Assembly: GCA_044229845.1 (NCBI GenBank)
Contig: JBGASG010000017.1
Span: 1-49,197, forward strand
Direction: 5' to 3'
Length of the DNA: 49,197 bases
Source of the DNA: Candidatus Obscuribacteraceae bacterium
Lineage (GTDB): Bacteria > Cyanobacteriota > Vampirovibrionia > Obscuribacterales > Obscuribacteraceae
Every line of letters begins with the position of its first letter. Position 1 is the stretch's first letter. Below the pieces are notes generated by a model. The model had not been told where the DNA came from. It was given only the letters and a program-made list of their open reading frames with translations, and did no database searches. Below, in pieces: positions 929-45,233 of this stretch. The position numbers and the translations under genes are program-made.

Positions 929-976
929 CTTAAGAGTAGAAACTGAATTGATATCAATTCAGTTTCTACTCTTAAG
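929..976. repeat. 48-bp perfect palindrome, longest copy of the dispersed AACTGAATTGATATCAATTCAGTT element
   Basis: CTTAAGAGTAGAAACTGAATTGAT|ATCAATTCAGTTTCTACTCTTAAG read directly from the sequence. Confidence 0.97.
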
Positions 977-1075
977 CTCCCATCAGTTCGGTATTCGCAC
1001 CAATTCTAAATTTTGCAATCGACATTGAACTTTTTTCGCTCGCTGTCCGTATACAAAATAAAGGAAGGGTGCTGT

Positions 1076-2236
1076 ATGTATGCGACAAAAGATCCCCGTA
1101 AATTACACTTGCGTGTTGCTGAAGAAAGCACTGAGCAAACACTTTGGGAGCACCTGGCTTGGTTTGCGCGCTCGTTTCCTACGGACGAAGATTGTTTGGA
1201 AGCGCTACTGATCGCGGCCAAGATAAACACTACTGACTGCCACCATTGTCATTCCGGAAGGATTGAGCGAGAGCATGGCTCAAGAACTGGAGTCTGCATT
1301 TCTTGCAATCGTGCTACCTATGTCACGGCTGGAACATTTTTCGATCACATGCGCAGGCCTCGTACCTGGTGGTGCGTCATTGTCACACTCGCCAGCAAAC
1401 TTAAGTTTAGCGCTAAATCACTCTGGGACTTCTTGGGTGGAAGCTACTTCACGATTTGGCGAGTTATTCAGAATGTGGCAAAGGCTATCGAAACGCAAAT
1501 GACTGAATTAACTCTTGCGATTGCCTCCGGCGAATTTCTGCCAGCAATTTGTCGCCGCAGCAAAGAAACCCCGAAAGGAACGCACCCGCGTGCGGAGGAA
1601 CAAGAAGCGCGAGACGGACAACCTAGAGAGGGCACTTTTTTTGACAACGGATCGCAAGCAAGAAGGTCGCAGCAAGAAGAAGAAGAAGAAGAAGAAGAAG
1701 TTGATGATGAGGCACACAAAGAAGCCCTTCCCTCAACAGCGATGGACGCGCCTGAACTCTCTTCTGATCTTGAGTCAGCAGTCGCCGCATCACTATCGAA
1801 TGCTAGTCCAACGAACTTTGAAACACTCTCCGTTCTCACTATGATCGATGCTCCCATGCTATCTGCCACACTAACATTAATGCAGTTGGCAGGCACTGTT
1901 GTGCGAGTCGGCGGAGACCATTTTATGCTCAGAAGAGGCTCCGCGGCGGGAGGCGCGAATGCCGTCGTACGCAGTTGCTGCCAAAGTCATCGCGATGAAG
2001 CAAAATCTATCATTGAGAAGATGATTGGGCACCTCAAGACAGTCCATCGCGGTATCAGTCGAAAGTATTTACAGCGATATGCGTGTTTATACTGGTGTCT
2101 GTACAGCCAAACGTGGACGCTGGAAAACATTTTGAGCGCTTGTATGGAAGTTGGCGAACTCGAAGACCTGCAGATAACTGAGTATGTTTCACCACTGGCA
2201 ATCAATGTTCTCGAATGCTCATCAGCGGCTTCGTAA
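1076..2236 (+). CDS. IS1595-transposase-derived protein: Zn ribbon, acidic linker, DprA-like winged helix, IS1595-like C-tail; no evident DDE core
   Basis: FPTDEDCLEAL..CHHC..CISC...VTAGTFFD at the N-terminus and HRGISRKYLQRY at the C-terminus. RBS AAGGAAGG at 1061-1068 favours ATG 1076 over the track start 1013. Confidence 0.7.
   Translation: MYATKDPRKLHLRVAEESTEQTLWEHLAWFARSFPTDEDCLEALLIAAKINTTDCHHCHSGRIEREHGSRTGVCISCNRATYVTAGTFFDHMRRPRTWWCVIVTLASKLKFSAKSLWDFLGGSYFTIWRVIQNVAKAIETQMTELTLAIASGEFLPAICRRSKETPKGTHPRAEEQEARDGQPREGTFFDNGSQARRSQQEEEEEEEEVDDEAHKEALPSTAMDAPELSSDLESAVAASLSNASPTNFETLSVLTMIDAPMLSATLTLMQLAGTVVRVGGDHFMLRRGSAAGGANAVVRSCCQSHRDEAKSIIEKMIGHLKTVHRGISRKYLQRYACLYWCLYSQTWTLENILSACMEVGELEDLQITEYVSPLAINVLECSSAAS
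1676..1699 (+). repeat. (GAA)8 trinucleotide repeat encoding poly-Glu
   Basis: Read directly from the sequence. Confidence 0.95.
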
Positions 2237-2545
2237 TCCGCATCACTATTTCATCGGCACCACATATAGTATCATCTACAGAGCGCCGCCCCACCAAAAT
2301 TCGGACTGAGAACTGTTGGGTTGGGTTGCCTTGTCAAGCCTAGAACACTGCTTGCAGAGATGTCTAAAATCCATGCTCCGCCCTTGGTGGTTGACTCGCA
2401 GGCGACAATGAGTGACCTTCGGTCCCTATGCGTCAGCCCGCATATCTCCTATACTAAAGTTGGTGCCGTCCTTTTAATAATTGCCTTCTCCGCAGTCTCA
2501 GGCTGGCAACAGCCGAAACTCCCAGTCCACAGTGTTAGTCAGCAA

Positions 2546-3295
2546 ATGATACGCATCCTCTTAGTCGATGACGACATCGACTTCTGCCACATTCTAAAGG
2601 AGTCGTTGGAAGCCGCTTCCGACAACTTGCGCTTGACTCACCTGGCACACGACACGGAAGACGCGGTCAGGCTGATAGATTACAGTCTGCACCTTTTCGA
2701 CTGCATCATCATGGACCTGGCTCTGCCTAGATCCGCAATCGATACTTTCATCGAGCGCGACTCGGGTTTGAAGTTACTGGGGTATTTGCGTGCCGGCAAA
2801 CGATTCGCCGGCAGCATCGTCATGCTAACCGCGTCTTGTGCCTTTGCAGACGGGAGAATGGCATTCGAATTAGGATGTGACGCTTATCTGACCAAGCCAC
2901 GCGAATTGGACGACCTAGTAGCGGCCCTGCAGGTCTGCATTGAGAAGCGCGTCATCGTTATGTCCCCCGAGATGAGGCACTTATTTGAGGCAGAGCAGAT
3001 TACGGCGCAGGAAGCTCGCTTGCTCGACATGCTCCTTGAAGGAGACACCTGGCCGGAAATAGCTCGAGCGCTCGGTTACAAGGATGGCAATTCCGCTTGT
3101 TCCGCGGCAGATCGCGCTTTCGACAAACTGCTCACCTGGCACGATCTAGCCTACGCCGCACCAGGGCTAAAAAAACGTCAGTTAGCGCTGCGCCTGTGGA
3201 AATGGCGCAATCGAGCGGCGCAAGACACTGCTGGTCTTTTGTCCGGAGAAGATCAACCCGAGATCTCTGAAACCGGCTCCACATTTTCAAACTAA
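2546..3295 (+). CDS. Response regulator (REC plus divergent LuxR-like HTH)
   Basis: MIRILLVDDD, IIMDLALP, MLTA, YLTKP, then ITAQEARLLDMLLEGDTWPEIARALG. ATG 2546 is preferred over the track start 2321. Confidence 0.8.
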   Translation: MIRILLVDDDIDFCHILKESLEAASDNLRLTHLAHDTEDAVRLIDYSLHLFDCIIMDLALPRSAIDTFIERDSGLKLLGYLRAGKRFAGSIVMLTASCAFADGRMAFELGCDAYLTKPRELDDLVAALQVCIEKRVIVMSPEMRHLFEAEQITAQEARLLDMLLEGDTWPEIARALGYKDGNSACSAADRAFDKLLTWHDLAYAAPGLKKRQLALRLWKWRNRAAQDTAGLLSGEDQPEISETGSTFSN

Positions 3296-3317
3296 CTTAT
3301 TTGATATCACTTGAGTT
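3294..3317. repeat. Degenerate copy of the dispersed palindrome (4 mismatches)
   Basis: AACTTATTTGATATCACTTGAGTT fills the gap between the convergent regulator and ppc stop codons. Confidence 0.7.
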
Positions 3318-6176
3318 TTAGCCGGTGCTTTGTAGCCCTTCGGCAACTCCATTTATGGACATGAGAACACAGTCGAGTAGAGTATCGCTGTTTGTGATTG
3401 CTTCGCCTGGTTCGGCAAATTTGACTTCTGCCTGATTGCGTTGTTGCCGCTCCCGCAATTCTTTGATGAACCGTACCTGTAAGTAACTGAGCGGATCGAC
3501 ATACGGATTACGCAATTCGATGGAGCGTTTGAGGAAGGGGTTATCAGCGAGTAGGTCCGAGCGTTCTGCGATCGATAGGATGCCTTCGCATGTGAGCTCG
3601 AAGTCCATTTCGATAGTGGGCAGAATGCGCTCTCTCAGCGCGGGCGAACAAAGTTGATCGGCATAGTATCGTGCTATGTCCATGTCGGCTATGGCTACAG
3701 CAGTTTCGACCTTGTCGATTAACCCGCGGAAGAAAGGCCAATCACGATACATTTCGCGCGCCACGGTTAGTGCATTGGCATCCTCGTTGACGATACGCCG
3801 CCAGGCGGTTCCCACGCCGTACCACGCGGGCAGCAGGAAACGGCTTTGAGTCCAAGCGAATATCCATGGAATGGCGCGCAAGTCATTGATCGAACGAGCA
3901 TTTCGTTTGCGGCTTGCCGGACGCGAACCCAGTCGCAACTGCCCGATTTCCGTAATCGGAGTGGTTTCGTAAAAGAAATCCACGAAGTCAGGATTTTCGT
4001 ATATGAGGGAACGAAACTCGTCAAACGCAAGCTGAGAAAAACGCTCCATTAGAGCGGTCCATGACTGATGCGCCTCTGAAATCGGCTGAGAATCGCTGGT
4101 GCTAGCCTGGATAACAGCGGACGCCAATCGATCGAATGTTCGGGCCGCGATACCGGGCAAAGCGTACTTGGAGGCAATCACCTCGCCCTGCTCGGTAATC
4201 TTGATGCGTCCGGTTACCGTTCCGGGCGGCTGGGCCAGAATTGCTCGATGAGTCGGTCCGCCGCCGCGCCCGATTGTGCCGCCACGTCCGTGAAACAGTC
4301 GCAACTCGATGTTGTACTCGCGAGCCAGACGCACCAGTTCTATCTGTGCTTTATATAGCTCCCAATTGGAAGCGACAATGCCGCCGTTCTTTCCGCTGTC
4401 GGAGTAGCCGATCATTATCTCCTGCACGTCATTTCTCGTTCGTAAGTAATTCCGATAGATGGCGTTGTCCAGCAGACTCTTGAATAAAACGGGCGCCCTT
4501 CGCAGATCGTCGATAGTTTCGAACAAAGGAACAATGCTCAACGCGCGCGTCGAACCTTCGACCGGCAAGGCTTCGTGCGAGTTGCGGGCGGTACGGCAAA
4601 GTCCAGTTTCTTTGGCAAAAAGCAAGATGACGAGCAGGTCGCTTGCTTGTTCAGTCATGCTGACGATGTATGTGTCCAGGGACTGCACGCCGTACAGATC
4701 CTGACTGGCAGCCACAGTTTGAAACACCCGTATCGTATCATTCGTTTCCGCCTCGAAAGTGAGCTTCGCGGGAATCAAGGGACGCATCGTCGTCAGTTCC
4801 TGATTTAGCCAGGCAACTCGATCAGGCTCGGAAAGGCTGGCATAACCGCCGGGAATCAAATCCAGGCTGCGAGTCAGATCGTCTAGAGCGGCTGAATGCC
4901 GCTGGCTGTGCTGTCGAACGTCAAGCTTGGCCAGATGAAATCCAAAGACGTCGACTGTGTAGATCAGTCGCTGCAATTGCGTCAAACTTGCCTGGCAGCC
5001 CGACTGCTGCAATGCCTTCAGCAAAAGCATAAGCTCGGCGCGCAATTCACTCGCCTGCGCATACGCGTGCTCGGCACCACTTACCGTGCTTTCCAGACGT
5101 TCCTGAATGACGAGCAACTTCTGCCTGAATGGTTCAAACACATATCGCTTTTCCAACTTCTCAGCGAGTTGCTTGTGTTCATGCATGTCTTCTTTGAGCG
5201 AGGCAAGCAAAGCATTATCGACGGGAAGCCAGTTGGCTGAATGACTAAGCTGACTGAACAACTTCTGAACATCCTGAATGTAGCGCTTCAGAATCAAAGA
5301 GCGATGGTATAGCAGCGTTTGCTCCGTAACCTCCGGAGTTACATAAGGATTGCCATCTCGGTCTCCCCCGATCCAGCTGCCGAAGGTGATGAAACGCCGT
5401 CCGCCTGCTGCTTGCTCCGGCGCCACTTCTGGCTGTAGGCGAGCAAATAGTTCCTCGTGTACATCCAGTACCGCGTCGATGATTACCTGGTCAAAGTGAG
5501 CCAGTCCATACTGAACCTCATCGAAAACTCTTGGCTTGAAGTAGATAACATGATCACTGAGCCAGAGAGCCTCAACAACGCCGTAAAGCCCTCGCTGCAC
5601 CTCTGACTGTTCGGAGCGCGTCAACGGAGGATGGTCCCTCTTTCGAAGGAAATGTGCCAGCGCCAATTGTTTGAGCAGCACAGTGCGTCGCGTAATCTCA
5701 GTCGGATGCGCCGTGAACACCACCTGCACATCCAGTTTTTCTACAGATGCACGGCCCGCATCCGCCAATGCGCCATTCTGTCCAAGGCGCAAGAAGAGCT
5801 CCTCCAGCGAGTCGGGTTGGGGCGGCTCACCTTCTCTACTTTCATGTTGCGCTCTCCGTCGCAAGCGATGATGTTGTTCTGCGATGTTGATCAAATCGAA
5901 ATAACAAAGGAATGCTTTTATTACTTTGCGTGCGATATCAAAATCAACCGTATCAATGAGCGCGAACAATTCACTTGCAATCTGGCTGTCATCGCGATTC
6001 TCATGGCGCTGTTTGCAGAGAATTCGAAATTTCTCCACAGCCGCAAACACCTCTTCGCCCTCTAGTCGGCGAATCGTCTCACCCAAAATGTTTCCCAGAT
6101 GCCTGACATCGTCACGCAAGGGTCTATTGGCTTCTACCAGTTCCCACTGCAGGGGCGTGCTGCGAGTTGTGTCCAT
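3318..6176 (-). CDS. ppc: Phosphoenolpyruvate carboxylase
   Basis: VFTAHPTE, GSWIGGDRDGNP, QEIMIGYSDSGKNGG, FHGRGGTIGRGGGP, LRAIPWIFAW, C-terminal GLQSTG. Confidence 0.97.
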   Translation of the reverse strand: MDTTRSTPLQWELVEANRPLRDDVRHLGNILGETIRRLEGEEVFAAVEKFRILCKQRHENRDDSQIASELFALIDTVDFDIARKVIKAFLCYFDLINIAEQHHRLRRRAQHESREGEPPQPDSLEELFLRLGQNGALADAGRASVEKLDVQVVFTAHPTEITRRTVLLKQLALAHFLRKRDHPPLTRSEQSEVQRGLYGVVEALWLSDHVIYFKPRVFDEVQYGLAHFDQVIIDAVLDVHEELFARLQPEVAPEQAAGGRRFITFGSWIGGDRDGNPYVTPEVTEQTLLYHRSLILKRYIQDVQKLFSQLSHSANWLPVDNALLASLKEDMHEHKQLAEKLEKRYVFEPFRQKLLVIQERLESTVSGAEHAYAQASELRAELMLLLKALQQSGCQASLTQLQRLIYTVDVFGFHLAKLDVRQHSQRHSAALDDLTRSLDLIPGGYASLSEPDRVAWLNQELTTMRPLIPAKLTFEAETNDTIRVFQTVAASQDLYGVQSLDTYIVSMTEQASDLLVILLFAKETGLCRTARNSHEALPVEGSTRALSIVPLFETIDDLRRAPVLFKSLLDNAIYRNYLRTRNDVQEIMIGYSDSGKNGGIVASNWELYKAQIELVRLAREYNIELRLFHGRGGTIGRGGGPTHRAILAQPPGTVTGRIKITEQGEVIASKYALPGIAARTFDRLASAVIQASTSDSQPISEAHQSWTALMERFSQLAFDEFRSLIYENPDFVDFFYETTPITEIGQLRLGSRPASRKRNARSINDLRAIPWIFAWTQSRFLLPAWYGVGTAWRRIVNEDANALTVAREMYRDWPFFRGLIDKVETAVAIADMDIARYYADQLCSPALRERILPTIEMDFELTCEGILSIAERSDLLADNPFLKRSIELRNPYVDPLSYLQVRFIKELRERQQRNQAEVKFAEPGEAITNSDTLLDCVLMSINGVAEGLQSTG

Positions 6177-6274
6177 TGCTCAACCTGATTAGCGCTCGCC
6201 ACTGTTTTACCAGATTTAGTGGCCTTGGTTGTCAGCAGAAGCTGGCGGCAGCAAAGGTCGCCCGACTCGGCAAT

Positions 6275-6304
6275 GAGAACTGAATTGATATCAATTCAGT
6301 TCTC
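6275..6304. repeat. Dispersed palindrome copy (30 bp perfect)
   Basis: GAGAACTGAATTGAT|ATCAATTCAGTTCTC. Confidence 0.97.
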
Positions 6305-6334
6305 GATACTGGCAGGCGGAGCCGCCTAATCTAG

Positions 6335-6541
6335 TCAGGCGGCATCCTGGCGTGGTTCGGCCAGATCGCCCACATAACGTTCGGTTTCCAGCGAACGCAC
6401 GACGTTGTCGCGTGCCTGTAGATAACTGAACAGGGTTTGGGAGCTACGCGGATCTAGAGCGACGACACCGATTTGCCACTCGGAATATAAGTCCAGAAGC
6501 TCAAGCAAGGTCATTTGAGATAAATTGACTTCGTATCGCAT
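6335..6541 (-). CDS. Small hypothetical protein (68 aa)
   Basis: Fills the gap in a same-strand gene run; GGAGG upstream (cctcc at 6556-6560). Confidence 0.55.
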   Translation of the reverse strand: MRYEVNLSQMTLLELLDLYSEWQIGVVALDPRSSQTLFSYLQARDNVVRSLETERYVGDLAEPRQDAA

Positions 6542-6597
6542 ATGCGCATTTCACGCCTCCTTTTGGGCAGACGTGAAAATTCAGCAAACGTGCCCGT

Positions 6598-7956
6598 TTA
6601 TTTCTTTTCGCCCCCTGGCTTGTGGCGCGGTTCTTTCTGACTATTCTTGTAATTGATAACTGCTTCAGATACATCCTTCATCGCCGACTGCAGCAATATG
6701 AACGTGAGGCTTTCGTAACTTGATTGCATCAGCTTGGTCGTGGCGTGGAGACTGCCCAGTAACTCCTCTGAGAGGTTCGCGGCTTCACGGTACTGGTCAG
6801 CTGCGTCTTCGAACTGCTGCTGCTCATAGTAGAGACGTCCGAGGTGGCTGCGCGTCGTAATGATGTTCGGATGCTTGCCGGAGTAGCGATCAACGAATAT
6901 CTTCAGCGCCTTTTGCAAGTTGGATTCTGCGCGGTCGAATTCGCCCAATCGCATCAGCAGCTGTCCCAGATTGGTCATGCACAAAGCCGTGTTGGGGTGA
7001 AACTCGCCAAAGCCCTCCAGGGAAACCGAAAGAGCTTCTTCATAAAAGGAACGCGCTTGCTCGGGCTGCCCCTTCATATGTTCTATTAGTCCCAAATTGT
7101 TTAAGCAGGCAAATGTTGACTGGTGGCAATTACCGAGCAATTGGCGCCGCAAGTTCAACGATTCCAGACAGAGCGCTTGCGCCTCTTCCAGCCGCCCCTG
7201 GCGACGATATAGCTCGCCCAGATTGTTCAAGCTGACGGCGAGACGATAGCGTCCCACCGATTGGCGTGAGCGGTGGATTTCCATGGCCTCGAGCAACAAA
7301 GCTTCCGCTTCGTCGAATCGTTGCTGCATAGCTAGAATCATTGCCTGCGTTTGAAACACATTGGCCCGTATCGACCAATCCGGCGTCACCATCTTGTCGG
7401 CGGCGAACAACGCCATCTGCGCGTGCACCTCTGCATCGTCCAGTTTCCCCTGCTGGCAAAGGCACGATGCCAGGTTGTCTTCGCAGATGGCGTTGAGAAC
7501 GTGCCCGTCCCCCAGCCAAATCAGGTATGTATCGAGCAACTGTCGGTAGACGCTCTCAGCTTTTTCCGCATGTCCTTGTTGCATGTATAGCGTTGCCAGG
7601 TTGTTGAGGACCTTGGCGATGCCCGCCAGATCGCCGCCGGCGCAGAGCTTGTAGCAGCGCAGCGCCTTGTGATAATGCCATTCGGCATCGGAAAGGCGAC
7701 CCAGAGCCTGCTTAACCAGTCCGACATTGTTGTGGGAAAGGGCAATGCGCACATCATCCGCAGGTAACCCAACACAAGCGTTCATTGCCTCCCAGAAAGC
7801 ATCATGGGACTCCTCAAACCAACCTTGGGCGTAAGCCTTGCGACCTCGACTGAAAAATTTTTCCCAGTTGGATTTCTGAGCCATTTGTTTTGTGCGGTCG
7901 CGATTTGCTGTCTCGGTTGCGATTTGCTTTTCGGCTGCGAGTTGCTTTTCGGTCAC
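6598..7956 (-). CDS. Tetratricopeptide repeat protein (kinesin-light-chain-like TPRs)
   Basis: Repeated A.SLNNLG.LY..QG...EA motifs with G..HP spacers. Confidence 0.9.
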   Translation of the reverse strand: MTEKQLAAEKQIATETANRDRTKQMAQKSNWEKFFSRGRKAYAQGWFEESHDAFWEAMNACVGLPADDVRIALSHNNVGLVKQALGRLSDAEWHYHKALRCYKLCAGGDLAGIAKVLNNLATLYMQQGHAEKAESVYRQLLDTYLIWLGDGHVLNAICEDNLASCLCQQGKLDDAEVHAQMALFAADKMVTPDWSIRANVFQTQAMILAMQQRFDEAEALLLEAMEIHRSRQSVGRYRLAVSLNNLGELYRRQGRLEEAQALCLESLNLRRQLLGNCHQSTFACLNNLGLIEHMKGQPEQARSFYEEALSVSLEGFGEFHPNTALCMTNLGQLLMRLGEFDRAESNLQKALKIFVDRYSGKHPNIITTRSHLGRLYYEQQQFEDAADQYREAANLSEELLGSLHATTKLMQSSYESLTFILLQSAMKDVSEAVINYKNSQKEPRHKPGGEKK

Positions 7957-7967
7957 CCAGTTAAGTA

Positions 7968-10130: not shown

Positions 10131-10179
10131 GTTCTTTTTTCGCTCCGGGGTTCCTCTAGTAACTATTTATCTCACCTGA

Positions 10180-13260: not shown

Positions 13261-13269
13261 CCCTTCTGC

Positions 13270-13635
13270 CTAGCGGTTCTCCACAATCCGCCTGATTTCG
13301 CCCGGCAACTTCATCGGGTCGAAAGGCTTGGACAAAACACCAGCGACATCCAGAGCTCGGTAACTATCAAGTTCCTGAGCCTGCACCTTAGCGGTCATGA
13401 AGATAACCGGAATGTTAGCAGTTTGCGCGTTTTCTCTCAGCTTGGCGAGCGTCGTAACGCCATCCATCCCCGGCATCATCATGTCCAGGATAATTAAGTC
13501 CGGATTCTCTACCTGGCTGAGCTGCAACGCCTCAGGACCGGATGCCGCCAACACCACATTGAAATCATCTTCCAGGCTGATCTGGGCAATCTCGCGAATA
13601 TGGGGGTCGTCGTCAACCAGCAGGATCTTTTGCAT
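13270..13635 (-). CDS. Single-domain CheY-like response regulator
   Basis: KILLVDDD, ILDMMMPGMDG, FMTA, SKPFDP. Confidence 0.93.
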   Translation of the reverse strand: MQKILLVDDDPHIREIAQISLEDDFNVVLAASGPEALQLSQVENPDLIILDMMMPGMDGVTTLAKLRENAQTANIPVIFMTAKVQAQELDSYRALDVAGVLSKPFDPMKLPGEIRRIVENR

Positions 13636-13830: not shown

Positions 13831-13860
13831 AAAAACTGAATTGATATCAATTCAGTTTTT
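13831..13860. repeat. Dispersed palindrome copy (30 bp perfect)
   Basis: AAAAACTGAATTGAT|ATCAATTCAGTTTTT, abutting the AraC gene stop codon. Confidence 0.97.
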
Positions 13861-17234: not shown

Positions 17235-17831
17235 ATGTATTTCACGCGTCCGCTCGCCAAACTAATCGAAGAATTCCAGAAGTTCCCCGGGGTCGGACCG
17301 AAGTCCGCGCAGCGGATGGCGTTCTTCGTCCTCGATATGCCGTTCGACTCGGCGCAGTCGCTGGCCAAAACAATCATCGAAGCCAAGGAGAAGGTCAAGC
17401 ATTGCTCGCACTGCTTCAATCTCTCCGAAAACGATCCCTGCGAAATCTGTCAGGATACTCGTCGCGACAGCCATACAATCTGCGTTGTCGCTGAGGCGCG
17501 CGACTTGATTGCGCTGGAGCGCACCCGTGAGTTCAAAGGTCTCTATCACGTGTTGACCGGCCTGATTTCGCCCCTCGAGGGCAAAGGTCCGGAGAAACTT
17601 TCGATTCGCCAGTTGCTTGAGCGCGTCAGCCGCGAAGAGATCAAAGAAGTGATTCTAGCAATCAACCCGACGGTGGAAGGCGACGCCACTGTTCTGTACC
17701 TGAGCCAGATTTTGCGACCTCTGGGAACGCGTCTCTCCCGCATCGCCTTTGGTCTGCCCGTCGGCGCCGACCTGGAATACGCCGACGATGTGACATTGTC
17801 TAAGTCGCTGCAAGGGCGCCTGGAAATCTAG
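17235..17831 (+). CDS. recR: Recombination mediator RecR
   Basis: PGVGPKSAQRMA, C4 zinc finger, YHVL.G.ISPLEG, EVILA.NPTVEGDAT, GLPVGADLEYAD. Confidence 0.97.
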   Translation: MYFTRPLAKLIEEFQKFPGVGPKSAQRMAFFVLDMPFDSAQSLAKTIIEAKEKVKHCSHCFNLSENDPCEICQDTRRDSHTICVVAEARDLIALERTREFKGLYHVLTGLISPLEGKGPEKLSIRQLLERVSREEIKEVILAINPTVEGDATVLYLSQILRPLGTRLSRIAFGLPVGADLEYADDVTLSKSLQGRLEI

Positions 17832-19908: not shown

Positions 19909-20106
19909 CCGATAAAAGGCAACCAGGGCACCATTTGCCAAGCATCATAGCAATGCCGGCCATACCTTGCGTTATAAGAAATTGTCCTAGCAATCAATGC
20001 CCGCACGGCCCGCCCCGTCAGGGCTTAGGACAACTTAATGGGGCACTTTTCTGCCCGATTTAGTCCTCTCCTTACAAAGACTTTGCCGAAAGGCAACACT
20101 GGCAGA

Positions 20107-20136
20107 AAAAACTGAATTGATATCAATTCAGTTTTT
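20107..20136. repeat. Dispersed palindrome copy (30 bp perfect)
   Basis: AAAAACTGAATTGAT|ATCAATTCAGTTTTT. Confidence 0.97.
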
Positions 20137-25841: not shown

Positions 25842-25842
25842 A

Positions 25843-30151: not shown

Positions 30152-30179
30152 GAAACTGAATTGATATCAATTCAGTTTC
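30152..30179. repeat. Dispersed palindrome copy (28 bp perfect)
   Basis: GAAACTGAATTGAT|ATCAATTCAGTTTC, between convergent dnaX and acylphosphatase. Confidence 0.97.
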
Positions 30180-32344: not shown

Positions 32345-32427
32345 TTGCGTGCTTTCTGACATCTTGATGTGAATTTTCGGGTATTGTTAGACGTCCCGAA
32401 GTTCAGTGTCCGAAAGGTTACTTTCCT

Positions 32428-33849: not shown

Positions 33850-33859
33850 GAGAATCGCG

Positions 33860-34621: not shown

Positions 34622-34643
34622 AAATTCATACTGACTACCGTAG

Positions 34644-34669
34644 AAACTGAATTGATATCAATTCAGTTT
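34644..34669. repeat. Dispersed palindrome copy (26 bp perfect)
   Basis: AAACTGAATTGAT|ATCAATTCAGTTT. Confidence 0.97.
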
Positions 34670-34678
34670 GCAGCCCGG

Positions 34679-34702
34679 AACTGAAGTGATATCAATTCAC
34701 TT
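34679..34702. repeat. Adjacent degenerate palindrome copy (2 mismatches)
   Basis: AACTGAAGTGATATCAATTCACTT, centred 34 bp from the previous copy. Confidence 0.85.
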
Positions 34703-34764
34703 ATTGGCGAGGTCACGGACGGGGCGCGTACAATGGGCCGCCAGAAGAGATTTTGGGGGCAAAA

Positions 34765-35865: not shown

Positions 35866-35877
35866 ACGGAGCCAATT

Positions 35878-36606
35878 TTGAGCAGAATCCTCGTAATCGA
35901 CGACGACACGGCTATCGCAGAACTTATTAAGGTCAATCTCGATCTCCTGGGACACCAGGTGACGACCGCCAACGACGGCATCAAGGGGTTGGCGCTTGCT
36001 CAGCAGAATCGTCCGGATCTGATCGTTCTCGACGTCATGATGCCGGACCTCGATGGATTTACTGTTTGTCAGAGACTGCGGCAGAATTCGTCGACCAACG
36101 GCATACCAATTTTGATGCTGACAGCACTCGGCATGACCAAAGATAAGGTCAAAGGATTTGATTCCGGCGCCGATGATTATTTGACCAAACCGTTTGAAAT
36201 TCCAGAACTGCAAGTGCGCGTGCGGGCCCTACTGCGGCGCGCCGGTTCGGTGCCGCAATCGGCTTCTCTGCCGGAGATTCTCACCGCCGGCGAAATCACC
36301 TTGATTCCGGAGAATTTGCAAGCCAAGGTCAAGGAACGCATCGTCAAACTGACGCCTACAGAATTCGAAATTCTGCACTGCTTGATGCAGCACCACGGAC
36401 AGACAGTCTCCACCGGCAAGCTGCTGGAAGAAGTCTGGGGCTATTCGCCAGATGACGACGTCGATACGATTCGGGTGCACATTCGGCACCTGCGCACCCG
36501 TCTTGAGACCCCCGATCGCAAATACATCCGCACCGTATATGGTGGCGGATATCAGCTGATCGCCGAAGGATTCGCCAAACAGGCCGGCGACAAAGACCAG
36601 GACTAA
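35878..36606 (+). CDS. rpaA: OmpR-family response regulator, RpaA orthologue-like
   Basis: [69 protein letters not shown] match cyanobacterial RpaA as recalled. Confidence 0.85.
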
Positions 36607-36760
36607 CTTTAGCCAGGACCGAACCAGGACCGAACAGGGCAGATCGAGTCTACGGTCGAGCTTCAAACTCAAGCCTGAAACTCAGCTTGCACTCAGCTTT
36701 GGCGCCTCCGTTGATTAAACCCGAGCGGCCCGGGCAACCGATCCGATACAATACATATAT

Positions 36761-39700
36761 ATGGAACGGGAAATTCCTCAAAGTTTGCAGTGGGCGCACC
36801 CACTTGTGCAGCGCTGGTTTGTCGACAAGTTCGCCACTGCAACTGAGCCGCAAGAACAGGGCTGGCCGCAGATAGTCGCTGGCAGGGCCACATTGATTGC
36901 CGCGCCTACCGGGTCGGGAAAAACGTTCGCAGCGTTTCTCTCTGCGATCAACGATTTGATTGTCCGAGCAACTGAAGGCACACTAAAAGACGAAACCCGC
37001 GTTCTGTATATTTCGCCTCTCAAAGCACTCAGCAACGACATTCAGAAAAACCTTGATGTGCCGTTGCGCGAGATTCAGCAACGCGCCAGGCAAGAAGGGC
37101 TCGAGCTGCCTGAGATGCGTGCCCAGGTGCGCACCGGCGACACCCTGACGCCCGAGCGCCAGCAGATGTTGCGCAAACCTCCACACATTCTGGTGACGAC
37201 ACCGGAGTCTCTTTACATTCTTTTGACGGCCGCTAAAAGTCGTGAACTGCTGCGCAACGTTGAAACTGTCATCGTCGATGAAATTCATGCTGTCGCCGAC
37301 GACAAGCGCGGCGCACATCTGGCATTGTCGCTCGAGCGCCTGGATGCGCTCACCTATCGCAAGCCGCAGCGCATTGGGCTCTCGGCGACCCAAAAACCGA
37401 TTGAGGCAGTGGCCGGATTTCTTGTCGGCGACACCAAACAGTTGCCCCTGATCGTCAATGTCGGACATAAACGCGAACTCGATCTGGCTGTCGAAGTGCC
37501 GGGCATGCCACTGGGACCGGTGGCATCCAACGAGATGTGGGATGAGATCAGCGACAAGATTGCTCAGCTGGTCAAAGAGCATCGCTCGACGCTTGTCTTC
37601 GTGAACACACGCCGGATGGCTGAGCGCTTCGCGATGGACCTGGGCGAGCGACTGGGTGAAGAAACTGTCGCCGCGCACCACGGCAGCATGTCTCGCAAAC
37701 TGCGCCTGGAGGCGGAGAACCGACTGAAGAACGGCGAGCTATCGGTACTGGTGGCGACCGCTTCGCTGGAGCTGGGCATTGATATCGGTGCCGTCGATCT
37801 GGTTTGCCAGCTCAATTCACCCCGCTCAATTGCCGTAGCATTGCAGCGCATCGGACGTGCCGGTCACTGGCGCGGTGCCATTCCGAAAGGCCGCCTGTTC
37901 GCCACCACTCGCGACGAGCTGGTGGAGATGGCCGCCCTGGCGCGCGCGATCAAATTGGGAGAACTGGATCGCCTGGAGATACCGGAATGTCCGATGGATA
38001 TCCTGGCTCAGCAGATTGTCGCCGCGTGCGCCGCCGATGACTGGAACGAAACCGATCTCTTCACCATGGTGCGGCGTGCCTATCCGTATCGCCATCTCAC
38101 CCTGGAGCAATTCGAGCGCACCGTCGAGATGCTCTCCGACGGCATCGCCGGACGTACCGGTCGCCATGTCGCCTGGCTCTTCCGCGACCAGGTAAATCAG
38201 CGGTTGAAGGCGCGCAGAGGCAGCCGGCTGGCTGCCATCACCAGCGGTGGTGCTATCCCGGAAACTGGTGCTTTTGCCGTAGTGGCAGAACCGGAAGGGC
38301 AGACAATCGGTTCGCTCGACGAAGACTTCGCCGTGGAAAGCAATCGCGGTGACATATTCCTGCTCGGCAATACGTCCTGGCGAATAAAACGCGTCGAGCA
38401 AAGTTCCAGCCGCGTGTTGGTCGAAGATGCGCACGGCGCACCGCCAACGGTGCCGTTCTGGCGCGGCGAAGCCCCGGCCCGCACGCGCGAGTTGTCCGCC
38501 CATGTCGCGGAATTGCGCGCCCGTGTCGACGAACTGCTGCCGGCTGATGCGCCCTTAGTTCTATCCACCGACAACACCGAAAAAATTCAGGACGCCATCG
38601 CCTGGCTGAAATCCGAGTGCCTGGTCGATACCGCCGGCGCCGAGCAGATAGCTGAATACATCTCGCAGGGGCGCGCCGTCTTGAAAGCGGTGCCTACCCA
38701 GAACACAATCGTCGCCGAGCGTTTCTTCGATGAAGGCGGCGGCATGCAGCTGGTCATTCATGCCCCATTTGGCGCCAGGATCAACAAGGCCTGGGGACTG
38801 GCACTGCGCAAACGATTCTGCCGCTCCTTCGATCTCGAGCTGCAAGCGGCCGCCACGGACGACGGACTGAATATTGCCCTCGCCGAACGACACAGTTTTC
38901 CGTTGCACGACATATTCCACTGGCTGCACCCGAACACTGTTCGTGAAGTGCTGGAACAGGCAGTCTTGCAGTCCCCGATCTTCGCCAGCCGCTGGAAATG
39001 GGATGCCGGACGGGCGCTGGCGGTGCTGCGTTTCTCCGGCGGCAAAAAAGTGCCGCCGCAATTGCAGCGTATGCGCGCCGAAGATCTCTTAGCGGCGGTG
39101 TTCCCGCAGGCAGCCGCCTGCCAGGACAACATGGATGGTGATGTCCAGATTCCCGACCACCCTTTGATCAATGAAGTCATGAAGGATGCCCTCACTGAGG
39201 CGCTGGACACTGAGGGCTTCAAACAGCTGTTGATCGATATCAATGCGGGCAAGATCAAACTGGTGGCAGTGGATACGCCCGTGCCATCGCAGTTCTCACA
39301 CGAGATTCTCAACGCCAATCCTTATTCCTATTTAGATGATGCGCCCCTGGAAGAGCGACGCGCCCGAGCTGTGCAAATGCGGCGCGTCCTCCCGGATGCG
39401 GTAGTCGACGAAATAGGGCAACTTGACGAAGCGGCCATCGCTCAGGTCGTGGAAGATTCCTGGCCCGATGTGCGGGACGCCGACGAGCTGGCGGATGTTT
39501 TGCAAAACCTGATTGCCACACCGGTGAAGCTGCCTACCCGCCCCGAGTCATCACCGGGCGCACTGTGGTTTTCGCACTTCGAGTCGTTGCGCCAACAGAA
39601 ACGTGCCACCATCGCCACGGCGGGCGGCCGTCAGTTTTTCGTTGCGGCCGAAAAGTTGACGTCCTTCCGAAATCTTTATCCCGAGTCCCAGTTCGCAGAA

Positions 39701-41239
39701 CAACTCGCCGATATCGAACGGCATCCGCTTGCAGAAGATGAAGTTCTGGTGGCAACGTTGCGCGCCTGGATGACACACTTCGGACCGACTACCGTCTCCG
39801 AGCTGGCACTCACACTGGCACTCCCGCCCCATGTAATCGAACGTGGACTGATTCTTCTGGAAGGCAAAGGTATCGTTATTCGCGGACACTTCACCGGTGG
39901 CAAACGCGTGCCGGACGCGGCATCCGCGGCCGACACGGCATCCACGACCGACACCGCATCCACGACCGACACGGCGTCCGCCATAGAATGGTGCGACCGG
40001 CGGCTGCTCTCTCGTATTCACAGGCTGACCATTTGCACTTTGCGCAAACAAATCGAGCCGGTCACAGCCGCTCAGTTCTTGCGCTGGCTGATGCACTGGC
40101 AACACGTGGCACCACATACGCAACTGGCCGGCGAGCGCGGCACCGAAGAAGTTTTGCGACAACTGCAAGGTTTCGAAATGCCGGCAAACGCCTGGGAAGC
40201 CCATATCCTCTCGCGCCGGCTGATCAAATATGACGCCAAAGTGCTGGACAATCTGTGCATGACCGGCTCGGTCGGCTGGGGTCGACTGTCTCCGCACCCT
40301 GCCACCATAGAAGGTGACGCGACCACAGATGCCGCACGACCAGCCAGCGAAAAAACGCCGCGCGCCCAAGATGCGACGCTGCGAGAAGCCGACAGCAAGA
40401 TACGCCGGGTCATCCCCACCAGCGTGGCACCGATCACCTTTTTCGTTCGGGAAGAAGCCGACTGGCTGTCGTCGCTCCACCACGATCAAGTGCCGACACC
40501 TCGCCATCTAAGTTCCGCCGCCCAGCAAGTCTACGAGTATCTGCAGCAACGCGGTGCCAGTTTCTTTCCGGACATCGTCCGCGCCAGCAATCGCCTCAAA
40601 TCCGAAGTGGAGACCGCCCTCTGGGAACTGGTCACCGCCGGATTGGTCACCGCCGACGGTTTCGATAATCTGCGAGCTTTAATAGATCCCAAACGCCGCG
40701 CCGGCACCAGCACCGGGCGCGCTCGCACCGTTCGCCCGCGCAACACCGGCGGCCGCTGGTCATGTCTCTACACCGACGACATCGGCGATCCCACGAAAGC
40801 TCTGGAAGCCACTTGCCGCATGCTCCTCAAACGTTACGGCATCGTCTTCCGCGATCTGCTGGCGCGCGAAACTGTAATACCGCGCTGGCGCGAACTGCTC
40901 AAGGGCTTCCGACGCCTGGAGGCGCGCGGCGAAATTCGCGGCGGACGCTTCATCAGCGGATTTATCGGCGAGCAATTCGGACTGCCGATTGCCGTCGAAT
41001 CGCTGCGGGCGATGCGCAAAGCCGAGCCGCTATCTGATCCGATTTTACTTAGCGCAGCCGACCCGCTCAATCTGATCGGCATTCTCGTACCCGGCGACCG
41101 CGTGCCTTCAGTTTCATCCAGGCACATCATGTTCACCGATGGTGCCACCATCAACTTCGAAGAAGTGGACATCAACAAGCTGCCGGCGCGGGTTGTCTCG
41201 CGCGGGCGCTACGGCGAATTGCCGGATGTGAGTTCCTGA
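36761..41239 (+). CDS. lhr: Lhr-like DEAD/H-box helicase (long form)
   Basis: APTGSGKT, SPLKALSNDI, PPHILVTTPESL, VDEIH, GLSAT, AHHGS, LELGIDIG, QRIGRAGH, and C-terminal LEARGEIRGGRF..GEQF, SAADPLNL. Confidence 0.93.
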   Translation: MEREIPQSLQWAHPLVQRWFVDKFATATEPQEQGWPQIVAGRATLIAAPTGSGKTFAAFLSAINDLIVRATEGTLKDETRVLYISPLKALSNDIQKNLDVPLREIQQRARQEGLELPEMRAQVRTGDTLTPERQQMLRKPPHILVTTPESLYILLTAAKSRELLRNVETVIVDEIHAVADDKRGAHLALSLERLDALTYRKPQRIGLSATQKPIEAVAGFLVGDTKQLPLIVNVGHKRELDLAVEVPGMPLGPVASNEMWDEISDKIAQLVKEHRSTLVFVNTRRMAERFAMDLGERLGEETVAAHHGSMSRKLRLEAENRLKNGELSVLVATASLELGIDIGAVDLVCQLNSPRSIAVALQRIGRAGHWRGAIPKGRLFATTRDELVEMAALARAIKLGELDRLEIPECPMDILAQQIVAACAADDWNETDLFTMVRRAYPYRHLTLEQFERTVEMLSDGIAGRTGRHVAWLFRDQVNQRLKARRGSRLAAITSGGAIPETGAFAVVAEPEGQTIGSLDEDFAVESNRGDIFLLGNTSWRIKRVEQSSSRVLVEDAHGAPPTVPFWRGEAPARTRELSAHVAELRARVDELLPADAPLVLSTDNTEKIQDAIAWLKSECLVDTAGAEQIAEYISQGRAVLKAVPTQNTIVAERFFDEGGGMQLVIHAPFGARINKAWGLALRKRFCRSFDLELQAAATDDGLNIALAERHSFPLHDIFHWLHPNTVREVLEQAVLQSPIFASRWKWDAGRALAVLRFSGGKKVPPQLQRMRAEDLLAAVFPQAAACQDNMDGDVQIPDHPLINEVMKDALTEALDTEGFKQLLIDINAGKIKLVAVDTPVPSQFSHEILNANPYSYLDDAPLEERRARAVQMRRVLPDAVVDEIGQLDEAAIAQVVEDSWPDVRDADELADVLQNLIATPVKLPTRPESSPGALWFSHFESLRQQKRATIATAGGRQFFVAAEKLTSFRNLYPESQFAEQLADIERHPLAEDEVLVATLRAWMTHFGPTTVSELALTLALPPHVIERGLILLEGKGIVIRGHFTGGKRVPDAASAADTASTTDTASTTDTASAIEWCDRRLLSRIHRLTICTLRKQIEPVTAAQFLRWLMHWQHVAPHTQLAGERGTEEVLRQLQGFEMPANAWEAHILSRRLIKYDAKVLDNLCMTGSVGWGRLSPHPATIEGDATTDAARPASEKTPRAQDATLREADSKIRRVIPTSVAPITFFVREEADWLSSLHHDQVPTPRHLSSAAQQVYEYLQQRGASFFPDIVRASNRLKSEVETALWELVTAGLVTADGFDNLRALIDPKRRAGTSTGRARTVRPRNTGGRWSCLYTDDIGDPTKALEATCRMLLKRYGIVFRDLLARETVIPRWRELLKGFRRLEARGEIRGGRFISGFIGEQFGLPIAVESLRAMRKAEPLSDPILLSAADPLNLIGILVPGDRVPSVSSRHIMFTDGATINFEEVDINKLPARVVSRGRYGELPDVSS
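39914..39985 (+). repeat. 18-bp tandem repeat, about 4 units (DTASTT-like), within lhr
   Basis: GACACGGCATCCACGACC-like units. Confidence 0.85.
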
Positions 41240-41262
41240 GCACCAGCAGCCAGAAAAGAGCA

Positions 41263-41739
41263 CTAGCAGCCAGGCAGAAACTGCGCGCACAATGCTGCAT
41301 CTTCAGCGATTTGCTTGAGCGCACGATTGCGTTCATGGAGAAACCGCCGCAGATAATGCTGCAAGTAAACAGCATCAACTATCCGACCGACAACTGAAAA
41401 TGGGCTTTCGAAGTCGAAACAGTCCTTGACCAGCGTCACGGTGCCGCGTTCCTCAAAAAAGTGATCGTGGTCGAAGCGCTTGAAAAAACCCGAGACCATC
41501 GAGTCTCGAAAGTGATGCGGTCGATCGAAAGCCACAATCCGCGAGGTCAGGTGCTGCGTCCAGACGTGTTTCGCCTGCCAGGTAACCGTGTCATTCAGAT
41601 TCATCAACCCGGTCATGACTCCGGCGACCACGTGCTCCCCGGTGTCCCGAGTGCTAAACAAGTGAGCATCGACACTGCGCGACAGATCGAAACAAACGTC
41701 GATCGGAGCACTTATCTCTGTCTCAAGTTTGATGATCAT
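41263..41739 (-). CDS. SRPBCC-family protein
   Basis: I.APID.CFDLSRSVD.H, VTW.A.H, F.D.MVSG.FKRF.HDH.F. Confidence 0.88.
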   Translation of the reverse strand: MIIKLETEISAPIDVCFDLSRSVDAHLFSTRDTGEHVVAGVMTGLMNLNDTVTWQAKHVWTQHLTSRIVAFDRPHHFRDSMVSGFFKRFDHDHFFEERGTVTLVKDCFDFESPFSVVGRIVDAVYLQHYLRRFLHERNRALKQIAEDAALCAQFLPGC

Positions 41740-41763
41740 GCATGATCAATGGTCATCAGCGAA

Positions 41764-43271
41764 CTATTTGGCGATGTGGCAAAACTGCACTGCGTTCTTG
41801 TTCAGCAGCTCCGCGCGGCTGAGTGCCGCCTCAGCAGAGCCCAGAAGCATGCGTAAGTCTTTGCAATCATCGGGAATGGTGGCAATGCCCATGCACACAG
41901 AGAGCTGAGCGGAGCCTCCCATCTTCTCGTCGAGCGGAGCGCGAGTCAGCTGTTTCATCACGCGTTCTGTAAACTTTACGGCACCCTCCGACTTGGTGTT
42001 CGGCAGTATTGCCGCGATGTCGAACATTTCATAGTGCGCCAGATAGTCTACGTCCCGCTTCACATGCGAGATGCGGCGCACGGCTTCGCCGAGCATGATC
42101 GGGGGCAGGGGCTGGTGCGTGCCATCACTGGTGGTTTCGCTGGCACGAATTTGAATCAGCACAACCGACATCGGCTTATTGTTTCGATAGTGGCGCAGGA
42201 ATTCCTGCTCCAGGAAATAGAGAAACGCGGGGTACGTGAGAAGCCCCGTTTCCGGGCGCTTGAGCGCGGTCATGACACTGCGGATGGCACCACGATCGAT
42301 GGACTTCGGACGCACGGCCCGATCGGCGGGAGGGTTTTGCACCTTCACGAAACCGCACTTGATCATGCGCACAAGCAGAGGCACCCATTGGCTGCGCAGA
42401 AGTCCCATGACGTTGATGACTTCAGTGACCGTGCGTTTATTGTCGATAGCCAGGTAGAACTGCTTCTGAAAGGTCATGTCATAAGACAGATATGAGCCGC
42501 TCTCCGCCGCCGCCGAGATAGATTCGAACTCGGCCTCGGCCAGATCGCGGCGCGCGCAGACGAGCACCGAGTTAGGCATGACGCCGTTGTTTTCCAGAAA
42601 ACGCTGCTTGTCAGCGAGCAAAACGCCCTTGAGCAAAAGTTTCTCGATGTTCTGATGGACAGTTTTGCGGTCCGAACGCACATCGGGATCGAAGCGGAAG
42701 TGCCCTTCCACCCACGTGCACAAAACCATGACGCACTCGCCGCCATACGCTTCCCGGCAACGTGCATGCAAGAGCTTGCCGTCGGCAAAGAAGACTTCAG
42801 CTTCGTCTCCCGGTGCTTTGATTGTTAGTCGTCCGGTCGCGCCCGCCATATGAATCGAATTGAATAGATTGCAGGCCAGCGTTTCGGAAAGCTCGCCCTC
42901 GAAATGCGACGTGCCCGGTGGGCGCGTCGGAGGTTTCCCCGGCACGAAGGCGGCACCTTCAATGGGCGCCTGGTACGTCGCCGGCATTTTGTACACCTGG
43001 TTGTACAAATCGGTGGACTTGATAATCTTGCCTTCTCGACCTTGCCGTCGACCGACTGCGACAGGCGCCATTCCGGTTCGCCGCCCCGCTGGTTCGAGCG
43101 CACAGACAGTTGAAACTCAACTCGCTTGTCCGGCGTAACCCAGAGCGCCTCTACCGTGGTCGGACTTTCGAAAGCCTGCGCCAGGAACTGGTCGACTTCC
43201 GCCAGTCCAGGGGTGTTCGAGAGCCGTATAGACATCGCCGGTTTAGCCATCTCGGCGGACTTATCAGACAT
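41764..43271 (-). pseudogene. DUF4388 plus degenerate GGDEF protein, frameshifted near 43030
   Basis: The N-terminal frame (ATG 43271, ..PEWRLSQSVDGKVEK) and the C-terminal frame (GKIIKSTD..FEGELSE..TGRLTI..F.DG.L.HA..W.EG.F.F; ETGLLTYPAF; AHYEMFD) overlap in different frames. Confidence 0.7.
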
Positions 43272-43463
43272 TACTTCTTCTCTATGATTACGCCGGAGCT
43301 CCCTCGCCATATACCCGGAAGCGCTGAACCGTAAAACAGACCTGCTTTTCAGCGGAAATCGGCGGTTTTGCCACGGACTCCCGGTGGAACGTAGAATTAG
43401 CGGGCATTCCTTCCTTCACAGCCGCGTTCCTTCCTTTCTCCCCGAGGCGACCGGGCGACCGTA

Positions 43464-44918
43464 ATGGCTCGAATTCTGCTGGTAGATGACGATACGCACC
43501 TCTCCAATTCCGTCCGCGACTGGCTCGTGATGGGAAGAAACGAGGTCGATCTGGCGTCCGAGGGCATCTCCGGCTACCAGCAATTGACCTCGAACCCGTA
43601 CCACCTGGCGATTATCGACTCGGACATGCCAGGAATGAGCGGCGCCGAGTTGGTCCAGCGCTTCCGCCAGGCGGGAGGGCGCACACCCATCCTGCTGCTG
43701 ACGGCAAGAAACGCTGAAGAGTACCGCCTGCCCGGCCAGAATATCGGCGCCGATGACTATTTGAGCAAGCCCTTCAATGTTCATGAGCTGGGCGCCCGCC
43801 TGCGCTCGCTGCTCAGCCACGCCGCACCGGCTCCCGCGCAATCCGCACCGGCTCCCGCACAATCCGCACCAGCTCCCGCACAATCCGCACCAGCTCCCGC
43901 ACAATCCGCACCGGCTGCCGCGCCGACACCCACCTCACAAACACCGCTCCCACCGCACCCGCAATCCACAGAACCGACGCGCGCCTGCACCACCTGCGGC
44001 CGCAAGTACGGAGCCGCAGTGGAACGCTGCACCGCCGACGGTTCCAATACTGTTTCTATTTCGGACGCCGAACTTGTAGGAGTAATGCTCAGCGACCGTT
44101 ATCAGGTCGAGGAGATGCTCGGCCTCGGCGCCTGGAGCGAGGTGTACAAAGGTCGCGATACAACAAGTGGGACACCAGTCGCTATCAAAATTCTGCATAA
44201 GCACATGGCACAAGATCCGATCAAGATCGAACGCTTTCGCCGTGAAGCGGCAACCTTAGCCAAAATAAAACATGACTGTTTGGCAGGCATCATCGACCAG
44301 GGCGCACGCAGCGGACGCCCCTACATCATCATGGAATACGTCATCGGGATGGGTCTGGACCGCATGCTAAGCCAACACGGTCGCCTCACGGTCAATCAAT
44401 GCTACGAAATCATTAGTTCCGTATGTGGTGCGCTCACCGCAGCCCACGATGCTGGACTAATTCACCGCGACCTGAAGCCCAGCAACATCTTCATCGTTAA
44501 TCGCGGTGGCATGCTGGGCGCAAAACTGCTCGACTTTGGCTTGGCAAAAGTCATCCTCACCGACGAGGACGGCTCCGCCACCCTCACCCAGAACGGCGAA
44601 GTGCTCGGCACCCCTGCCTACATGAGCCCCGAACAATGCATGGGTCATCAACTCGACAGACGCTCCGATCTTTATTCACTGGGCTGCATCCTCTATGAAA
44701 TTCTGACTGGCAAGAAACCTATCCAAGCCAAGAACGCTTACCAAGCCATGTCGGGACACATAACACGGATGCCGGATCCATTCGCGGTCGCCTGCCCGGA
44801 ACTGAGCATTTCGGCTCAGGTAGAACAGGTGGCATTCTGTTTGCTGTCAAAAGATCCTGACGACAGGTACGAAAGCGCAGAAACGTTTCTTTCCGAATTC
44901 AAAAATGCAATTCGCTAG
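43464..44918 (+). CDS. Receiver domain fused to a Hanks-type Ser/Thr kinase
   Basis: RILLVDDD..IIDSDMP..LTAR..DDYLSKPF; CTTC..C; GLGAWSEVYKG, VAIK, HRDLKPSN, DFGLAK, GTPAYMSPEQ. Confidence 0.93.
   Translation: MARILLVDDDTHLSNSVRDWLVMGRNEVDLASEGISGYQQLTSNPYHLAIIDSDMPGMSGAELVQRFRQAGGRTPILLLTARNAEEYRLPGQNIGADDYLSKPFNVHELGARLRSLLSHAAPAPAQSAPAPAQSAPAPAQSAPAPAQSAPAAAPTPTSQTPLPPHPQSTEPTRACTTCGRKYGAAVERCTADGSNTVSISDAELVGVMLSDRYQVEEMLGLGAWSEVYKGRDTTSGTPVAIKILHKHMAQDPIKIERFRREAATLAKIKHDCLAGIIDQGARSGRPYIIMEYVIGMGLDRMLSQHGRLTVNQCYEIISSVCGALTAAHDAGLIHRDLKPSNIFIVNRGGMLGAKLLDFGLAKVILTDEDGSATLTQNGEVLGTPAYMSPEQCMGHQLDRRSDLYSLGCILYEILTGKKPIQAKNAYQAMSGHITRMPDPFAVACPELSISAQVEQVAFCLLSKDPDDRYESAETFLSEFKNAIR
43824..43922 (+). 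repeat. 21-bp tandem repeat, about 4.7 units (APAPAQS linker)
   Basis: GCACC(G/A)GCTCCCGC(A/G)CAATCC units. Confidence 0.95.
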
Positions 44919-45178
44919 TGCCATAGTGCCTGGTACCGCATTTGATACCAGTTTCGGCTCGCCCGCCGCGTCAACGAGATTAAAGCAAGCAGGTTAGCCA
45001 CCACTAATTAGTCGCAATCTGTGAACAATCGATTCGATAACGAGTAATTTTCAGCAATAAATATTTCCGCAGGCAGGGTTGGCAAGTAGCTATCTGAATC
45101 CTGCCGTCCGCTTCGACGGATGGCAACAAATCGCGCATGTCAAGCAGTGAGGCGTCCCGAAAGCCACTGCCCGCCTAA

Positions 45179-45233
45179 AAACTAAAGAGATATCAATTCA
45201 GCTTCCACAGCTCAAGTGATATCTCTTCAGTTT
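45179..45233. repeat. Inverted doublet of two degenerate palindrome copies
   Basis: AACTAAAGAGATATCAATTCAGCT (45180-45203) and AGCTCAAGTGATATCTCTTCAGTT (45209-45232); the 25-bp arms are complementary at 22/25 around a TCCAC spacer. Confidence 0.8.

Follow-up and report, generated by a model that had tools for sequence, protein, structure and literature searches.

One bacterial chromosome of the family Obscuribacteraceae carries palindromic sites in regional, position-coded dialects, each of them tied to a movable paralogue of a single orphan protein. We describe these sites from a stretch of 49,197 nucleotides (hereafter the window: contig JBGASG010000017.1 of assembly GCA_044229845.1, labelled C10 below) of a Candidatus Obscuribacteraceae bacterium, whose genome (G000; 5.16 Mb, 88% complete) was compared with those of its relatives. 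Sequence comparison points to a real, conserved and apparently undescribed system composed of a protein and its sites, for which a plausible mechanism can be proposed. No description of the protein or of the palindrome family was found in the literature searched, of which parts were accessible.

The initial annotation of the window had listed six exact and four degenerate copies of a palindrome, and all ten were recovered where it had placed them (Table 1). The starts that it gave for the exact copies are those of extended perfect palindromes around a 24-mer core, which found no match in 100 shuffles of the sequence. As it had noted, the copies avoid coding sequences: all ten stand between called genes, the one at 3294 touching a stop codon, and two, at 3294 and 30154, separate convergent genes. 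A comparison with Rfam that it had suggested gave no match in the window. An assembly artefact is ruled out, because the words of window positions 700-3400 are present at 0.97-0.99 in 14 DNA runs from eight studies (each run being flagged as a possible source) and because the sister genome G001 has all nine loci (ten copies) of the window contig at identical places. The G001 counterpart of the site at 20107 consists of two copies, 95 bp apart.

Hundreds of copies of the exact word per genome had been extrapolated, but only nine exist in G000, six of them in the window. With a symmetric profile at a score of at least 14, 160 sites grouped in 91 loci were found in G000, and none in the reversed genome. 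Eighty-eight of the 91 loci are intergenic, in all gene orientations; the flanking genes are divergent at 25 loci and convergent at 15, proportions similar to those of gaps in general, which contradicts the suggestion of a 3'-untranslated-region element. Tandem sites are spaced 20-73 bp apart within arrays.

The sites are centred on GATATC, with the axis between GAT and ATC and no spacer. The two bases adjoining this centre vary by region and define what we call dialects: TT in 15/20 half-sites on the window contig C10, CC in 42/42 on C6, GC in 64/74 on C3, GT in 62/84 on C18, and a mixture of GT and GC on C8. The window's exact word belongs to the TT dialect, one of five regional dialects in total. 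In a leave-one-out classification by sequence alone, 70 of 76 loci were assigned to their own region (mean of 16 and maximum of 25 after shuffling). The dialects of G001 are the same as those of G000; G001 also shows that C10, C16 and C15 follow one another in this order, with TT sites flanking the left end of the window in both directions. Comparison with G001 also revealed a segment of ~8 kb that is present twice in G000 (C15:1-8420 and C16:9166-17500, ~90% alike), with one exact TT site in each copy.

Beyond the core, the arms are locus-specific yet mirror-image, with 266/376 positions paired versus 140 in shuffles, over up to 32 bp per arm. Fourteen double changes in the arms keep the pairing, versus four that break it. 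Such mirroring of locus-specific arms would point to fold-back correction or to selection of hairpins.

G000 holds exactly five paralogues of one Obscuribacteraceae protein, one per site cluster and no sixth. They are encoded by the open reading frame at 1076-2236 of the window and by genes at C3:200640, C6:254328, C8:370144 and C18:75521; those at the cluster centres of C3, C6 and C8 were predicted in writing ahead of the search. Each gene has sites shortly upstream together with a ATTGAACTTTTT element, and each is central in its own stretch of 100-200 kb with its own version of the palindrome. Seventy-one of the 91 loci are found within 100 kb of a paralogue, that is, in 14.6% of the genome. 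From 0-5 kb to 200-300 kb from a paralogue, the successive densities are 23.6, 17.8, 14.4, 12.3, 4.7, 5.9, 2.5, 1.8, 1.2 and 0.6 loci per 100 kb, with the 12.3 value reached at 20-40 kb, ~5 at 40-80 kb and <2 past 100 kb. The initial annotation was right to weigh readings as elements of the repetitive extragenic palindromic (REP) type and as protein-binding sites, and its undescribed, loop-less, intergenic family that is not a regulon stands; it noticed neither the partner gene (1076-2236) nor the existence of dialects by region.

In other genera, the clusters occupy non-orthologous places, yet each contains one member of the same orphan protein family. Clusters of G095, a complete genome from another genus, and of G007 map to regions that are nearly site-free in G000, and those of G201 and G007 are located at their own paralogue genes. 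In G095, which serves as an independent test, GTTAAC is the centre of the sites upstream of two paralogues, at 3.558 and 3.965 Mb, and all 21 WCCGTTAACGGW sites of the genome fall within 3.42-4.01 Mb, around these two genes (4 in the control). They split into a TCC..GGA type around 3.558 Mb and an ACC..GGT type around 3.965 Mb, each identical in type to the upstream site of its own gene. The paralogues at 2.379 and 4.416 Mb carry arm types of their own. The arm type of the latter recurs at loci L018-L019 (4.06-4.08 Mb), 300 kb away from the gene, possibly as a cluster split by rearrangement.

Full-length members of the protein family (best E <1e-25) were found in 86 of 101 Obscuribacteraceae genomes and in none of 250 other genomes sampled from the phylum; with a limit of E 1e-30, the family comprises 681 matching representatives (50% identity). 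At least two WWCCGATATCGGWW are present in 72 of the 86 genomes with a full-length member versus 1 of the 15 without, counts in which kin are not independent. In 92/113 homologous loci with full upstream DNA, a site of the family precedes the gene by 40-330 nt, and TTGAAC lies within 140 nt of the start in 103/113; in the window, the centre of the gene-proximal palindrome is 123 nt before the ATG. Satellite sites accompany 3/13 paralogues with upstream arms of at least 20 bp and 11/22 with shorter arms.

A quick tree was built from 115 of 120 proteins, the other five being omitted as short or weak rows. In this tree, the C3, C18 and C8 paralogues, which have related dialects, form one clade (Shimodaira-Hasegawa-like approximate likelihood ratio test, 90). 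The paralogues of one metagenome-assembled genome (MAG) form a clade of their own, and the gene expansions are therefore lineage-specific. Site position 4 covaries most with helix residue 125, and position 5 with residue 123, without significance after correction for the tree (tree-aware test for residue 125, p 0.25, with too few pairs). All seven upstream sites with T at position 4 are paired with a residue other than Ser at 125.

Site sequences are conserved among relatives. Over five congeneric pairs and 122 sites, with sites called in one genome only and an alignment that may favour the core, substitutions increase from the centre (4/672) through 9/445 and 17/448 to the outer arm (84/1102) and amount to 924/7713 in the flanks, corresponding to 0.6% in the core versus 12% in the flanks. 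Sites are nearly always common to orthologous places in relatives, the differences being tandem gains or losses. By these comparisons, they appear to behave as constrained binding sites rather than as fast-moving elements.

The partner protein combines a zinc ribbon and a helix-turn-helix (HTH) derived from IS1595 transposases, an acidic linker, a DprA-type winged helix and C-terminal helices of the IS1595 type. Of the Pfam signatures, DprA_WH scores above cut-off, and the IS1595 zinc ribbon is weakly detected in relatives. The family profile matches an intact IS1595 transposase over the zinc ribbon and HTH with an E of 2e-27 and weakly over the C-terminal helices, and neighbours in the ESM Atlas carry PF12760/PF12762. 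The linker and the winged helix occupy the place of the DDE motifs and of the core that these enclosed: PF12762 was not detected, and the VE(I/V)D and TD motifs are absent when the protein is aligned with three transposases that are intact or nearly so. The invariant residues stem for the most part from non-catalytic regions of the transposase, and the near-invariant polar ones are R70, R161, S162, H170, E174, S328, K330 and Q333. A structure model is confident except for the linker (predicted local distance difference test, 83.8); that of a natural member devoid of the winged helix reaches 90.8, and its comparison with solved structures gave no match. A subfamily of 260-300 residues without winged helix (L152, L155, L156, L187 and L193) has 5-12 degenerate upstream tandem sites with a period of 35-37 bp.

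Table 1. Palindromic sites of the window and features of the partner gene.
Feature	Position	Strand	Description
Gene-proximal upstream site	929..976	.	48-bp perfect loop-less palindrome; exact core 941-964; arms of 24 bp
Promoter-like element ATTGAACTTTTT	1024..1035	+	Conserved; between site and gene; presumed function
Partner gene	1076..2236	+	386 aa; adjoins the copy at 929-976
Zinc ribbon C55/C58/C74/C77	1238..1306	+	99-100% conserved in 268 sequences
Helix-turn-helix	1409..1492	+	Residues 112-139
R161-S162...H170-P171..E174 motif	1553..1597	+	Near-invariant; at the place of the former first DDE strand
DprA winged helix PF17782	1745..1915	+	Residues 224-280; 26.2 bits, cut-off 22.9; putative ComM-binding module
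Degenerate site	3294..3317	.	4 mismatches; between convergent genes
Exact site	6275..6304	.	30-bp perfect palindrome; core from 6278; arms of 15 bp
Exact site	13831..13860	.	30-bp perfect palindrome; core from 13834; arms of 15 bp
Exact site	20107..20136	.	30-bp perfect palindrome; core from 20110; arms of 15 bp
Exact site	30152..30179	.	28-bp perfect palindrome; core from 30154; arms of 14 bp; flanked by dnaX and an acylphosphatase gene
Exact site	34644..34669	.	26-bp perfect palindrome; core from 34645; arms of 13 bp; first of a pair, 34 bp apart
Degenerate site	34679..34702	.	2 mismatches; second of the 34644/34679 pair
Degenerate site	45180..45203	.	4 mismatches; paired with the next site, 29 bp further on
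Degenerate site	45209..45232	.	5 mismatches; second of the 45180/45209 pair

Other repeats of the window include a 22-bp AT-rich sequence present upstream of dxs and inside recR (17644-17665 and 19976-19997, one copy at each gene) and tandem 21-bp repeats (43822-43926) encoding a Pro/Ala/Gln linker in a fusion of a response regulator with a Ser/Thr kinase. At the left contig edge (2-106), the window has the C-terminal end of an open reading frame, 34 residues without Pfam match, where G001 lacks 129 bp. We take this end to resemble that of an IS256-type transposase, which is probably the cause of the contig break.

The winged helix offers a link with natural transformation. [quoted passage not shown] In our protein family, the winged-helix consensus matches that of the host DprA, with L266, L269 and E270 conserved at 0.91, 0.95 and 0.91, respectively (258 sequences). 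We read these residues as the likely counterparts of those three V. cholerae positions, as far as they are described, by the motif LxLELEL and not by alignment; the window protein has Q at the position equivalent to E353. ComM is encoded in 93/101 family genomes, DprA in G000 and ComEC in 5/5. The G000 comM gene (C6:216173-217684) is inside the CC cluster, 38 kb from the paralogue and with a site ~900 bp downstream; this is probably chance, because in G095 comM is at 2.157 Mb and not inside a cluster. The resemblance to DprA-ComM recruitment, as partly documented, thus lies in a PF17782 winged helix near-identical to the host DprA domain with interface-type residues kept, and in the presence of ComM, DprA and ComEC in these genomes; the difference is that the winged helix is fused here to a predicted sequence-specific module binding double-stranded DNA, and not to the single-stranded-DNA-binding DprA core.

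We tentatively favour, at somewhat less than even weight, a reading in which the palindrome belongs, as a local dialect, to a conserved family of sites, and the window paralogue probably binds this dialect in the surroundings of its gene, where it would recruit ComM, the branch-migration helicase that serves to integrate DNA taken up by the cell. It builds on the observation of one gene per cluster, an upstream site and a dialect for each gene, a decay over ~50 kb and constrained cores. Very probably, the zinc ribbon and HTH that were retained let a dimer recognise both half-sites, a cis preference confines the protein to its neighbourhood and the upstream site serves autoregulation; transposases show cis preference, according to the accessible part of PMC5009743. 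The captured winged helix might then dock ComM, a step to which we give slightly less than an even chance, and turn bound sites into loading points or decoys for transformation-type recombination. Recombination around the gene would benefit both the gene and its linked sites. New sites, tandem arrays and mirror-image arms could arise where sites are bound, through infrequent local copying, slippage and fold-back, with selection keeping the sites that the local paralogue reads. In a bolder form, which we consider doubtful, a non-cutting transposase would be a cis-acting, sequence-specific ComM loader, each paralogue writing a territory of 100-200 kb with its own code and steering recombination there.

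Several observations weigh against the ComM-recruiting reading. Among 51 homologous loci, 30 are without a satellite over ~10 kb and 16 have at least two; in one MAG, eight loci have essentially the upstream site only; and G095 has ~20 scattered sites away from any paralogue. Ten of 268 members have no winged helix, and this domain also fits the MarR and Z-alpha folds. Genome comparisons revealed no fresh site insertion. Finally, two clustered paralogues are frameshifted as assembled. The frameshifts, in L217 (G001 C4:145696-146889) and L180/L184 (G095 3.965 Mb), lie in or just before the winged helix, and the site clusters persist; they represent either decay or sequencing error.

A selfish element resembling REPtrons is the best alternative, although we consider it unlikely: the palindrome would be copied to neighbouring positions by the protein itself, by way of a cryptic active site, or by a helper IS1595 transposase, and clusters would record local spread. 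REPtrons (REP/REPIN with RAYT/TnpA-REP, such as Ma and Mb of Marinomonas MWYL1) are closest in layout: as described in the accessible text, each joins a domesticated transposase gene to an intergenic palindrome class that goes with it, several such pairs occur per genome, and the palindromes form tandem arrays, with copies concentrated near the cognate gene, the Marinomonas REPs clustering beside their own tnpA-REP genes (PMC8266576). The exponential-like decay of sites from the gene, the lineage-specific gene expansions, the near-invariant polar residues, the mirror-image arms with their pairing-keeping double changes and the three near-identical intact IS1595 copies of G204 (L195-L197) are also in line with copying. 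However, the partner here derives from a DDE-family IS1595 transposase and has lost the DDE residues and RNase H core, rather than being of the HUH/Y1 type, and it has captured a DprA winged helix; its invariant residues stem mostly from non-catalytic parts. It has no Y1_Tnp domain, and the Y1_Tnp matches of G000 (C8:30.5 kb, C14 and C1) are outside the clusters, with none in G095. The palindromes have no loop and no GTAG signature (5/160 sites have this 5' tetranucleotide and 22/160 have GGAG), direct repeats of at least 6 bp indicative of target-site duplication were found at 0/48 solitary sites (control mean 1.1), and the clusters are old, stable across species and constrained, not recent.

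Relative to IS1595 transposases themselves, the zinc ribbon and HTH are homologous and the C-terminal helices weakly so, but no DDE residues, terminal repeats or target duplications were found, and the ratio of non-synonymous to synonymous substitution rates versus G001 is 0.24 for the window gene and 0.17-0.36 across four paralogues. The half-site bears a loose, non-significant likeness to the ends of the G204 IS1595 copies, with shuffles reaching the score in 9-43% of cases (four IS ends scored). CENP-B is a eukaryotic DNA-binding protein domesticated from a transposase. In the partial accounts available to us, SETMAR and CENP-B, both eukaryotic, similarly kept the transposase DNA-binding domain, lost catalysis, gained a new module and have dispersed cognate sites; the present system differs in being bacterial and in having palindromes of paralogue-specific sequence clustered around the gene itself.

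In a further, rather improbable scenario, the protein is a local chromosome organiser in the manner of matS/MatP, parS/ParB or CENP-B boxes, a dimer bridging sites and folding or anchoring a domain of 100-200 kb, with the winged helix acting as a second module for binding DNA or a partner, unrelated to ComM. This would fit the orientation-independent intergenic sites, the constrained cores, the domain-sized clusters and the known ability of transposase ancestors to synapse two ends. The known systems matS/MatP, parS/ParB, SBS/SlmA and NBS/Noc consist of palindromic protein sites enriched in one region, linked to the origin or to the terminus and recognised by a single protein; regional enrichment is shared, but here up to five dialects each follow a movable paralogue. 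The parS/matS-like reading of the initial annotation is unsupported, because ParB_N is missing and the clusters are non-orthologous, with no fixed distance from dnaA. ParB_N was found in neither G000 nor any of five relatives and in 3/38 family genomes at least 90% complete, and parS/ParB was thus rejected. Its absence from the other 35 could be taken in favour of an organiser, but elsewhere in the class it is infrequent as well (33/112 genomes at least 90% complete). A single conserved matS/MatP-like terminus domain was rejected in view of the five clusters of G000 and of the G095 and G007 clusters falling in its nearly site-free regions. In G095, with dnaA at 2.832 Mb (the gene is missing from the G000 assembly), the clusters at 2.379, 3.558, 3.965 and 4.416 Mb are -0.45, +0.73, +1.13 and +1.58 Mb from it and not grouped at the origin. 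Against an organiser also stand the copy number, from none to more than 10, and the 15/101 genomes without a full-length member.

We regard as highly improbable a conventional transcription factor that regulates itself and has either a local regulon or sites acting as decoys. The upstream site with its promoter-like element and the many loci with an upstream site only would suit it, but the loci between convergent genes, the unrelated neighbour genes that differ between genera and a distance decay not explained by a diffusing regulator do not.

Whatever the mechanism, the system provides a natural series of protein-site pairs for the study of the co-evolution of sites and specificity, and a candidate case, open to testing, of a protein whose action is limited to cis across tens of kilobases. 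If the ComM-loader reading is true, the protein would be the equivalent in bacteria of one that specifies hotspots, and selfish persistence would have a route not seen before. It possibly illustrates how the DprA-ComM interface, once borrowed by a domesticated mobile gene, lets this gene manipulate natural transformation, in a system that spans a whole family of uncultured, non-photosynthetic Cyanobacteriota.

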